This document shows, piece by piece, positions 26,011-26,436 of a stretch of 64,000 bases of DNA; the first letter of the stretch is position 1; each line of letters begins with the position of its first letter. Both the position numbers and the translations under genes were made by a program. Origin of the DNA: an uncultured Candidatus Saccharibacteria bacterium (GTDB lineage Bacteria > Patescibacteriota > WWE3 > UBA101185 > UBA10185); assembly GCA_964615625.1 (NCBI GenBank), contig CAZTQT010000002.1, forward strand, positions 5,555 to 69,554, read 5' to 3'. The notes under the pieces were generated by a model. The model saw only the letters and a program-made list of their open reading frames with translations, was not told where the DNA came from and made no database searches.

Positions 26011-26088
26011 GGTGGTTGTAGCTCAGTTGGTTAGAGCGCCTCTCTGTGGAAGAGGAGGTCGCGGGTTCGAGACCCGTCAACCACCCCA
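26011..26088 (+). tRNA. tRNA-His (anticodon GTG), with the extra G-1
   Basis: Manual fold gives G-1 pairing with discriminator C73, anticodon loop CUGUGGA, TTCGAGA T-loop and an encoded CCA. Confidence 0.85.
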
Positions 26089-26089
26089 G

Positions 26090-26269
26090 GAAGCCGGATA
26101 ATCACCTTGTGTGGTTAGCCGGCTTTCTCGTTGACGGGGCGAGAATGCCGGAGCGAACGAAGTGAGTGAGGCGGGGTCGCGTGCATTAGAGACTCTTACG
26201 AACAAAGTGAGTTTAGACGCAAAGCGTCGCAACGAACGAAGCGAGTTAGAGTGTCTTATGACAGGTGAC
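26090..26269 (+). ncRNA. GC-rich structured element downstream of tRNA-His, bounded by a 22-bp direct repeat of the tRNA 3' end
   Basis: About 55% GC against about 33% locally. Contains an 8-bp stem hairpin, three copies of the (A)CGAAC(G/A)AAG(T/C)GAGT motif, and a terminator-like hairpin plus T-run at 26304–26347. Direct repeats are at 26068–26089 and 26270–26291. Confidence 0.4.
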
Positions 26270-26436
26270 CGAGACCCGTCAACCACCCCAGAAAGAGTTT
26301 GCTACCCCACTGAATGAAGTGAAGTGGGTGGTAAGCTTTTTTATTTATGGGGTGTGACACAGTCGCTTGTTACTAATATTTTTTCACTATTTGACACCAA
26401 TAATCTTTAAAAGTAGAATCCTTAACAATAAACCAA

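Follow-up and report, generated by a model that had tools for sequence, protein, structure and literature searches.

What kind of sequence separates a tRNA gene from a second copy of its own 3' end? The question is raised by a tRNA-His gene in a 64-kb stretch of DNA (hereafter the window; contig CAZTQT010000002.1) from an uncultured Patescibacteria bacterium. The tRNA-His(GTG) gene lies at 26012-26088 of the forward strand, with G-1 at 26011 and a genome-encoded CCA at 26086-26088 (ARAGORN; Rfam RF00005, 67.6 bits). The 22-mer CGAGACCCGTCAACCACCCCAG has two exact occurrences, one at the tRNA end (26068-26089) and one at 26270-26291 (0 expected in shuffles), and the repeat reaches 26 nt when one mismatch is allowed. 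The insert of 202 bp (26089-26290) belongs to a family of tRNA-linked cassettes with tRNA-specific ends, which exists in this Patescibacteria lineage. For this family we favour, at roughly even confidence, a composite reading: a recombination-mobile, structured tRNA-trailer cassette which would be co-transcribed with its tRNA. A preliminary description of the locus, made from its sequence, had offered two proposals, a structured RNA of about 250 nt fused to tRNA-His and, alternatively, an att-type scar or the cargo of a tiny integrative element; both proved right in part, neither in full, and each of them is taken up below where the evidence bears on it.

The unit behind tRNA-His and its homologues

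All features of the unit are given on the forward strand. Repeat copy 1 (26068-26089) comprises T-loop positions 56-60, the 3' strand of the T-stem, the 3' strand of the acceptor stem, C73, CCA and one further G. In copy 2 (26270-26291), nucleotides 26275-26283 provide the 3' strand of a helix, P1, and nucleotides 26284-26290 (CACCCCA) form a single-stranded tail, which is the remainder of the tRNA-His acceptor 3' strand together with the discriminator and CCA. The GC content is 0.50-0.60 across 26000-26300 and ~0.30-0.40 in the flanks, in a genome of ~33%. Both the exact repeat and the GC-rich insert of the preliminary description are thus borne out.

Directly after the tRNA, the unit opens with a leader hairpin, hp1 (GGAAGCCGGATAATCACC...GGTTAGCCGGCTTTC; 26089-26127), which is real, but whose arms (26088-26105 and 26111-26128) are longer than the 8-bp stem originally assigned to it; it folds as 26089-26127. 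The 5' strand of P1, GTTGACGGG (26130-26138), is complementary to 26275-26283 at 9 of 9 positions, and the inner 5 bp of this helix are a replica of the tRNA-His T-stem. P1 encloses a junction, GCGAGAATG (26139-26147), the columns of which are nearly invariant in the alignment of homologues (alignment A1); a hairpin, P2 (26147-26172), with a GCC/GGC stem and a purine-rich loop holding the first copy of a repeated motif (26154-26167); and a domain at 26175-26270 in which P3 (26175-26180 with 26265-26270, including a conserved G-U pair) is followed by a long arm, P4. This arm carries the second and third motif copies (26199-26212 and 26233-26246) and a mini-hairpin, GACGC-AAA-GCGTC (26216-26228). 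The motif CGAACGAAGTGAGT, i.e., CGAAC(G/A)AAG(T/C)GAGT, had been reported in three copies, and these were recovered at 26154, 26199 and 26233 with at most one mismatch each. Beyond the second CCA, the minimum-free-energy fold contains a terminator-like hairpin (T-hp, 26291-26342) with an imperfect stem of ~21 bp and a T6 run at 26337-26342, in agreement with the hairpin and T-run described earlier; a simple terminator scan made no call at 26291-26342, because the loop is larger than 8 nt and exceeds the limit of the scan. The region 26089-26347 folds at -110.2 kcal/mol (z = -7.7), and 0 of 200 shuffles were equally stable. In an empty site, the tRNA-His CCA would be joined directly to AAAGAGTTTGC.

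Upstream of the tRNA, the sequence TGGTAAAAT (25991-25999, +) can be read as a putative extended -10-like promoter element, and a TTGATTT..TGGTAAAATAC block is kept upstream of tRNA-His in other species; a sigma-70 scan, which needs a -35 element, made no call at TGGTAAAAT. The 202-bp insert contains no plausible gene, its sole open reading frame (ORF) being an antisense frame of 69 aa. A small peptide starting at a conserved GAGAATG was considered and rejected, the ATG being lost in L014, L024 and L040 (L numbers are labels of the related loci and contigs compared).

For the collection of homologues, one genome per species was scanned with the tRNA-end pattern, which found the same arrangement in several Patescibacteria assemblies; a metagenome scan with this pattern gave ten further loci, and additional loci were sampled by synteny via the neighbouring MBL-fold hydrolase. 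About 12 distinct homologous units are located behind tRNA-His in related Patescibacteria (alignment A1), and the insert is nearly unchanged in ten contigs of the window's own species from different samples. Cassette-carrying contigs stem from digester and sediment samples, e.g., JGI 3300010351 and ENA ERZ27257458. The units are gene-less, GC-rich and modular, measure ~170-220 bp and follow a common plan: the CCA is followed by a leader hairpin, a U-rich stretch, P1 (GTTGACGGG/CCCGTCAAC in the His units), the nearly invariant junction GCGAGAAUG, P2, P3 (GGUCGCG/CGUGACC with the conserved G-U pair), P4 and the tail CACCCCA. The leader hairpin comes in two alternative versions, hp1 as at 26089-26127 or a hairpin of the T-hp kind as at 26291-26342, which in other genomes stands in the place of hp1 ahead of the body. 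In the long P4 arm, two mismatches recur at fixed positions (T-T and G-G or G-A; by eye). An additional P4 module of 34 nt, absent from shorter homologues, is present in the window copy, L019 and L023; the window unit therefore has three motif copies, and the copy number ranges from 1 to 3 among units. L016 and L020 contain an extra insert with a UUCG-capped hairpin (ATGC-TTCG-GCAT).

A covariance model was built from 12 units, and His units score 150-190 bits with it. The diverged unit of L015, which has the same tRNA-His and was found through the tRNA, scores 32 bits; its tRNA-end copy differs at 4 of 21 positions, hence, the perfect repeat is not universal. More distant relatives with a different tRNA-His (L028, L033/L034, L047) have no cassette there. 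The preliminary description had proposed an Rfam scan, a comparison of relatives and a covariation-based fold as checks. In Rfam 15, only tRNA models match (E up to 10 for the window, E up to 1 for four related loci), and neither tRNA nor tmRNA models detect the cassette. Bodies of the kind found behind tRNA-His (type A) do not occur elsewhere than behind tRNA-His in the window plus ~8.7 kb to its left (~73 kb). About 5 kb left of the window start (L052, 3876-5254), there is a gene-free stretch of 1.4 kb with a GC content of only 17-29%, located between an RNHCP-domain gene and a pilin-like gene and without tRNA or cassette.

Viral sequences were scanned as well. Scans with the 3' end of the unit and with hp1 gave no matches. 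Conserved words of the body matched twice in GC-rich phage coding sequence, which was judged to be chance. A scan of viral contigs for motif pairs gave one match, L011, in which a 30-nt tandem repeat shares a 14-mer; being a tandem array, the match counts as one 14-mer coincidence only and is probably due to chance. The array (4685-4793 of IMGVR_UViG_3300017989_004422) consists of 3.6 tandem copies of the 30-nt unit with the 14-mer CGAACRAAGTGAGT, right after a gene stop. L011 also has 24-nt tandem repeats inside genes, and the CGAACRAAGTGAGT array is probably coincidental.

The T-stem replica, the acceptor 3' strand and the CCA might be taken for the remains of a degenerate second tRNA-His, i.e., a pseudogene with an expanded T-loop, and there are short resemblances to the tRNA as well (GGTGGTT in hp1; GAGGCGGGGTCGCG vs. 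GAGGAGGTCGCGGG). This explanation is hardly credible: outside the repeat, the best local alignments are at shuffle level (87-211 of 300 shuffles were as good), no cloverleaf is detected, ARAGORN and Rfam finding the true tRNA only, and the same body also occurs with tRNA-Leu ends.

Conserved folding on the tRNA-sense strand

RNAalifold, applied to the alignment of ~12 His units, gave 47 consensus pairs, of which 15 have compensatory changes on both sides. Paired cells make up 97.8%, compared to 89.7% in column shuffles. The covariation score is 0.278 versus 0.147 for shuffles, with 0 of 500 reaching it, and falls to 0.03-0.07 when partners are slid by 1-3 columns, whereby the consensus structure was derived from the very sequences scored. 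Compensatory changes are found in several helices: a C-G to U-A change among homologues in hp1, covarying pairs at alignment columns 106-108/137-139 in P2, and five pairs with compensatory changes at 100% pairing in helix 6 of the P3/P4 region. P1 is paired in 11 of 12 homologues, G-U variants included. G-U pairs account for about 9% of paired cells, and one pair is of this kind in each of the 11 sequences having it; on the opposite strand, such pairs would be mismatches. The window copy folds at -84.3 kcal/mol in sense orientation (z -5.95) versus -64.1 kcal/mol in antisense (z -2.7). The secondary structure of the cassette is conserved with compensatory changes, on the tRNA-sense strand. Of the proposed structured RNA fused to tRNA-His, the structural part is upheld by this conservation, by the covariation in ~12 homologues and by the strand asymmetry; the fused transcript of ~250 nt is hypothetical.

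Sister cassettes, turnover and recombination at tRNA ends

tRNA-His is one of only two tRNAs in the window. The other, tRNA-Leu(CAA), is located at 23777-23863 (-; ARAGORN, Rfam) and also has a cassette behind it (23549-23794, -), bounded by an exact 32-nt direct repeat (23763-23794 and 23549-23580), which consists of the tRNA-Leu 3' end and 14 nt of flank. Its closing stem, GTGGGAG (23710-23716) with CTCCCAC (23574-23580), is a replica of the tRNA-Leu T-stem, and its body is of a different kind (type B). Behind tRNA-Leu(CAA) of relatives, the covariance model of the His units finds matches with 20-25 bits in L040, L012 and L028, and one with 61 bits (E about 9e-16) in L004, which is from the window's own species. 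These Leu units share the blocks GAGAAUG, GAGGCGGGGUCG and GGUGAYCG with the His units and read GTGGGAG...CTCCCAC-(C/T)CACGGCACCA, the tail being the tRNA-Leu acceptor 3' strand and CCA. In His and Leu units alike, the inner 5 bp of P1 copy the T-stem of the tRNA that precedes the unit. Formally, the cassette can be described as a T-arm with 110-150 nt of structured sequence instead of its loop, to which the acceptor 3' strand and CCA are appended. Retroviral-type primer-binding logic was rejected for the Leu repeat (tRNA positions 59-76), because it has the same sense as the tRNA and is not complementary to it; no reverse transcriptase gene was noticed near any cassette copy.

Part of the type B body is a 36-nt hairpin module that a pattern search finds twice in the window (0 expected), at 23665-23700 (-) within the Leu cassette and, isolated, at 26443-26478 (+) downstream of the His cassette, where it lies in the leader of the 194-aa gene. 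The two copies are identical save one position (N in the pattern), which is G at 26443-26478 and A in the Leu cassette. Parts of the module are reverse-complementary to the motif in the P2 loop of type A, with a duplex energy beaten by only 4-6 of 300 shuffles. Related 57-nt modules form an indel after 26367 in L003/L007 and are present in at least three tandem copies in L018.

Such a modular build, in which sub-repeats of 34 to 57 nt vary in number (at least three in tandem in L018), is reminiscent of REP-, BOX- or MITE-like hairpin repeats, which would spread as single-stranded DNA by means of an HUH-type or similar enzyme and accumulate behind tRNA genes. The reverse-complement orientation of cassette-loop-related motifs in the type B modules, the polymorphism at strain level and the recurrent mini-hairpins of the GCGAAGC type would fit as well; hairpins of this type are very stable in DNA. 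Nevertheless, this origin appears improbable, since dispersal is not seen: within ~73 kb, type A bodies are confined to the places behind tRNAs, and type B modules occur only behind tRNA-Leu plus once downstream of the His cassette (window and ~8.7 kb flank). The tRNA-specific ends and the T-stem replica would be left unexplained, no HUH or RAYT gene was seen in the part of the window ORFs that was scanned, and the UUCG-capped hairpin (L016, L020) as well as the G-U pairs point to RNA.

Closely related strains differ by gain, loss, exchange and tandem duplication of cassettes. Three alleles of tRNA-Leu exist in the window's species: empty (L003), with type B (window, L001 and others) and with type A plus a further spacer (L004). 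The tRNA-end copy in L004 has a C where the resident tRNA-Leu has a T, and this C matches the tRNA-Leu of other species; therefore, the copy was imported and not duplicated in place. The Leu unit is present in L043 and absent in L044, the hydrolase proteins of which are identical. At tRNA-His, L040 has two tandem units, first of the hp1 and then of the T-hp type, several genomes have the T-hp type only, and L016 has two units with a 1-kb gene cassette between them. The T-hp unit is identical at 184 of 184 positions between L029 and L040, the dnaB genes of which are 88.6% identical; the bodies of the window and of the L029/L040 species are 62-67% identical.

In relatives, large-serine-recombinase islands integrate precisely after the CCA of the tRNA or of the cassette copy. 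RA.bin45 has a 7.4-kb island exactly between the tRNA-His CCA and hp1, with a large serine recombinase of 553 aa that reads toward the tRNA. L040 provides the empty allele; the hydrolase proteins are identical, and both were assigned to one species. In L030, another island, encoding a recombinase of 499 aa, occupies the junction of CCA and T-hp, with L029, L031 and L032 as empty alleles. The alleles with and without island from the same species are joined exactly at the site; they are from relatives, not from the window. The recombinases carry the Pfam domains Resolvase, Recombinase and Zn_ribbon_recom. Between them, L012+L014 (JAKLGS010000001), L030, L039 and L042 show the two island types, with the recombinase gene antisense into the tRNA. 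The left end of the second island type is also found after the cassette CCA in L019 and L040; therefore, the cassette copy serves as a second attB. The first type ends in GTTAGCAnnnATTAGC(G/C)ACCCCA, an end also seen in L021, L016 and the cassette-free L047. This places its crossover within the ACCCCA with which the tRNA finishes, and it shows that the cassette is not part of the islands. The idea that the cassette is their right arm was rejected accordingly: L040 keeps the cassette directly on the tRNA, and the islands carry their own conserved end, also in L047. From the empty alleles, attB, attP, attL and attR can be written, the attB of the first type being the junction of CCA and hp1 and that of the second the junction of CCA and T-hp; the candidate attP of the 553-aa recombinase is ..TTAGCGACCCCA|AATGCTCATTTGAC... 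Tandem accretion with recombinase-bearing elements at the same site is seen in RA.bin45, L021, L040, L019 and L016.

Small recombinase-less islets flanked by ..CCACCCCA and ..AGCCACCCCA are located downstream of tRNA-His in L047 (~490 bp) and at 1809-2828 in L016; they share the left end TTATTTwwGGTTG..., and the tRNA-His end is a hotspot also in cassette-free genomes. No serine recombinase is found in the window, the only recombinase seen there being a Xer-type tyrosine recombinase (Phage_integrase and SAM-like N-terminal domain; 9392-10417, -).

These findings bear on the proposal of an att-type scar. The repeated tRNA end is a genuine recombination site, as islands integrate at either copy in relatives, and strains of the window's species have, lack or exchange the sister cassette behind tRNA-Leu; instead of a decaying scar, the insert is a member of a conserved modular family with tRNA-specific ends. 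The strictest form of the proposal would be a relic at DNA level: a minimal attL/attR pair of a tRNA-targeting element, cis-mobilizable and without RNA function, the motifs being protein-binding sites. Its direct repeat runs from the T-loop to CCA as in classical tRNA-targeting islands, ~200 bp is the size of a complete attP, presence/absence alleles including the imported L004 copy are found at tRNA-Leu, and the tandem arrays with recombinase-bearing islands are closely parallel to the ssrA islands of Dehalococcoides (PMC3146451). We consider this unlikely, however, because compensatory changes, conserved G-U pairs and strand asymmetry are unexpected for protein-binding arms and the motif copy number varies from 1 to 3. 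In addition, the cassette has a GC content of 50-60% whereas the islands are AT-rich, and the serine-recombinase islands are bounded by different ends of their own, the cassette being left behind. Moreover, the His cassette is found in every sampled species with this tRNA-His, as the comparison of relatives showed, and is 100% conserved where neighbouring genes have diverged.

If, conversely, the RNA were all that counts, the cassette could be a dedicated functional RNA that mimics an acceptor/T-arm end. It might act as a decoy or sensor (of the histidyl-tRNA synthetase HisRS, of CCA-adding or trimming enzymes, or of a toxin acting on tRNA ends), as a cis-regulator in which the tail competes with the terminator hairpin, or as antisense partner of the type B modules. 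The conserved junction nucleotides and structure, the cognate tRNA end kept in His and Leu units, the position of the HisRS gene 0.7-2.5 kb downstream in several genomes and the complementarity of the P2 loop to type B modules would be in line with such a role, and the 3' strand of T-hp, GGGTGGT, can pair with the tail ACCACCC (by inspection, no computation). It is nonetheless clearly unlikely: no conserved partner gene adjoins, flanking ORFs being strain-variable and without Pfam hits; the cassette is dispensable at tRNA-Leu within one species; the order of hairpin and body varies, so that there is no single conserved expression platform; and the closing helix is without the outer 3 bp of the acceptor stem and the G-1:C73 pair needed by HisRS. 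A riboswitch of a HisRS operon was rejected, as the genes in between are encoded on the other strand and T-box models give no match.

Concerning the genes around both cassettes, four ORFan genes (194, 138, 159 and 141 aa; 26509-28683) without Pfam hits lie downstream of the His cassette, preceded by a sigma-70-like promoter (TTGACA-17-TAGAAT, 26391-26419, +; 11 of 12 matches). The product of the 194-aa ORFan is a Cys-rich repeat protein (CxFxT-like repeats). These genes differ by strain: L005 has two copies of the 194-aa gene, and in L003/L007 genes of 169 and 100 aa stand in its place. The HisRS gene is found 0.7-2.5 kb downstream of tRNA-His in most relatives (L015, L021, L023, L024, L029, L033, L043); in the window, HisRS is not at this position, and the variable ORFans and a dCMP deaminase precede an EamA transporter instead. 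Downstream of the Leu cassette (21606-23450, -), three adjacent ORFans of 119, 147 and 298 aa without Pfam hits resemble paralogues of a repeated motif (..EC..VY..S..GS....KALEKAL..). The motif CCTGTAGTATTTGACAC, with a -10 box 17 nt on, is found in the window at 23508-23526 (-), after cassettes in L014, L021 and L024, and also in L003, L007 and L026. As a recurrent promoter motif (TTGACA-17-TATAAT) which also occurs elsewhere, it was rejected as the start of an element; CCTGTAGTATTTGACAC looks like a strong promoter typical of the lineage, having a conserved element upstream and directly following several cassettes.

The composite reading and known systems

In the composite reading, transcription of the cassette would start from the tRNA promoter and reach as far as the hairpin with its T-run (26291-26342); the conserved TGGTAAAAT upstream and the T-run hairpin after the second CCA suggest that it lies within the tRNA transcription unit. 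tRNA 3'-end maturation may then set both ends, since the unit starts after a CCA and ends in a T-stem/acceptor/CCA replica, and would release a discrete, stable RNA of ~200 nt. On the DNA level, the repeated tRNA end would be the site of cassette insertion, deletion and accretion, and mobility would resemble that of a cis-mobilizable mini-element, driven either by a recombinase in trans or by homologous exchange. We favour a trailer element that is selfish or weakly beneficial, i.e., a 3' stabiliser or insulator and a spare attB, over a dedicated regulator, because nothing conserved is encoded alongside and the cassette is dispensable at tRNA-Leu. As a tentative extension, which we regard as possible but distinctly less probable than the composite reading itself, the cassettes might constitute a new class of mobile RNA gene that inserts behind tRNA genes and borrows the tRNA promoter and the 3'-end maturation signals, the tRNA end being processing signal and recombination site at once. 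The purine-rich loops of such an RNA could act on complementary leader modules or on proteins that read tRNA 3' ends.

Several points weigh against the composite reading. Co-transcription and processing are steps that we infer, and in L020, L021 and L024/L029 a strong terminator-like hairpin stands between tRNA and body; as T-hp comes first there, the body may escape transcription from the tRNA promoter. In tRNA sense, the type B body is no more stable than expected by chance (z -1.5), and it folds better in antisense (z -3.0). Few independent lineages, with 2-3 sequence types, contribute the compensatory changes, and swapping of whole hairpins could inflate the covariation counts. Most units were retrieved by patterns that need an intact tRNA-end copy, so that its perfect conservation is partly due to ascertainment. 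No empty tRNA-His allele was found among the sampled genomes with this tRNA-His sequence, and no recombinase can be assigned to the cassettes, the Xer-like tyrosine recombinase of the window being 16 kb away.

The 3' ends of tRNA genes are classic landing sites of genomic islands, and repeats found there are normally treated as passive scars. Here, the tRNA-end repeat belongs to a conserved, folded, gene-less cassette, the closing stem and tail of which are tailored to the host tRNA, and cassette turnover is seen between near-identical strains of candidate-phyla-radiation bacteria. Should the cassettes be transcribed, they would represent a new type of tRNA-trailer RNA whose maturation relies on mimicry of a tRNA; otherwise, they would rank as the smallest described family of att-bounded elements and offer large serine recombinases a natural set of duplicated attB sites. 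Either way, two recombinase/attB pairs from uncultivated bacteria are directly testable, and tRNA trailers are flagged as a place for hidden RNAs in reduced genomes.

tRNA-like structures and minihelix mimics are known from viral 3' ends, the tRNA-like domain of tmRNA and mascRNA. The cassette resembles them in its T-stem-equivalent helix followed by the acceptor 3' strand, discriminator and CCA, and differs in having no 5' acceptor strand and 110-150 nt in place of the T-loop. Functional RNAs are also released from tRNA 3' trailers, e.g., the 3' external transcribed spacer of the leuZ operon in E. coli; these are short, unstructured sponges, and to our knowledge they carry no copy of a tRNA end. 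Like them, the cassette is located directly 3' of a tRNA, presumably in the tRNA transcription unit and with ends that tRNA processing could set. Unlike them, it would be expressed as an RNA of ~200 nt and has a three-way junction, a T-stem/acceptor/CCA replica and mobile-like gain and loss.

At the ssrA 3' end of Dehalococcoides, tandem islands with a CcrB-like large serine recombinase, DsiB, and integrase-less, cis-mobilizable islands have been described (PMC3146451). Common to both systems are ~20-nt direct repeats of the 3' end of a tRNA or tRNA-like gene starting from the T-loop, several tandem elements separated by repeats, some of them without recombinase, a serine recombinase gene beside attL on the reverse strand, and conserved sequence just upstream of each repeat. 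In contrast to Dehalococcoides, the recombinase-less unit described here is a gene-less, GC-rich sequence of 170-220 bp with a covarying fold, one body occurs with the ends of two different tRNAs, and the serine-recombinase islands have a different end sequence, ..TTAGCGACCCCA, the cassette staying behind in the chromosome. BOX elements of Streptococcus pneumoniae are modular as well and are dispersed in more than 100 copies, with neither tRNA linkage nor target-derived ends (PMC3049150). Variable internal sub-repeats, strong predicted folding, intergenic location and strain variability are shared with them, whereas the cassettes are found only behind tRNAs and with cognate tRNA ends. Direct repeats of tRNA ends, tandem islands and attB sites of serine recombinases are thus already known. 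As far as Rfam 15 and literature searches show, the family of gene-less 170-220-bp cassettes with a covarying fold, the T-stem replica as closing helix and the cognate ends at two different tRNAs are new.

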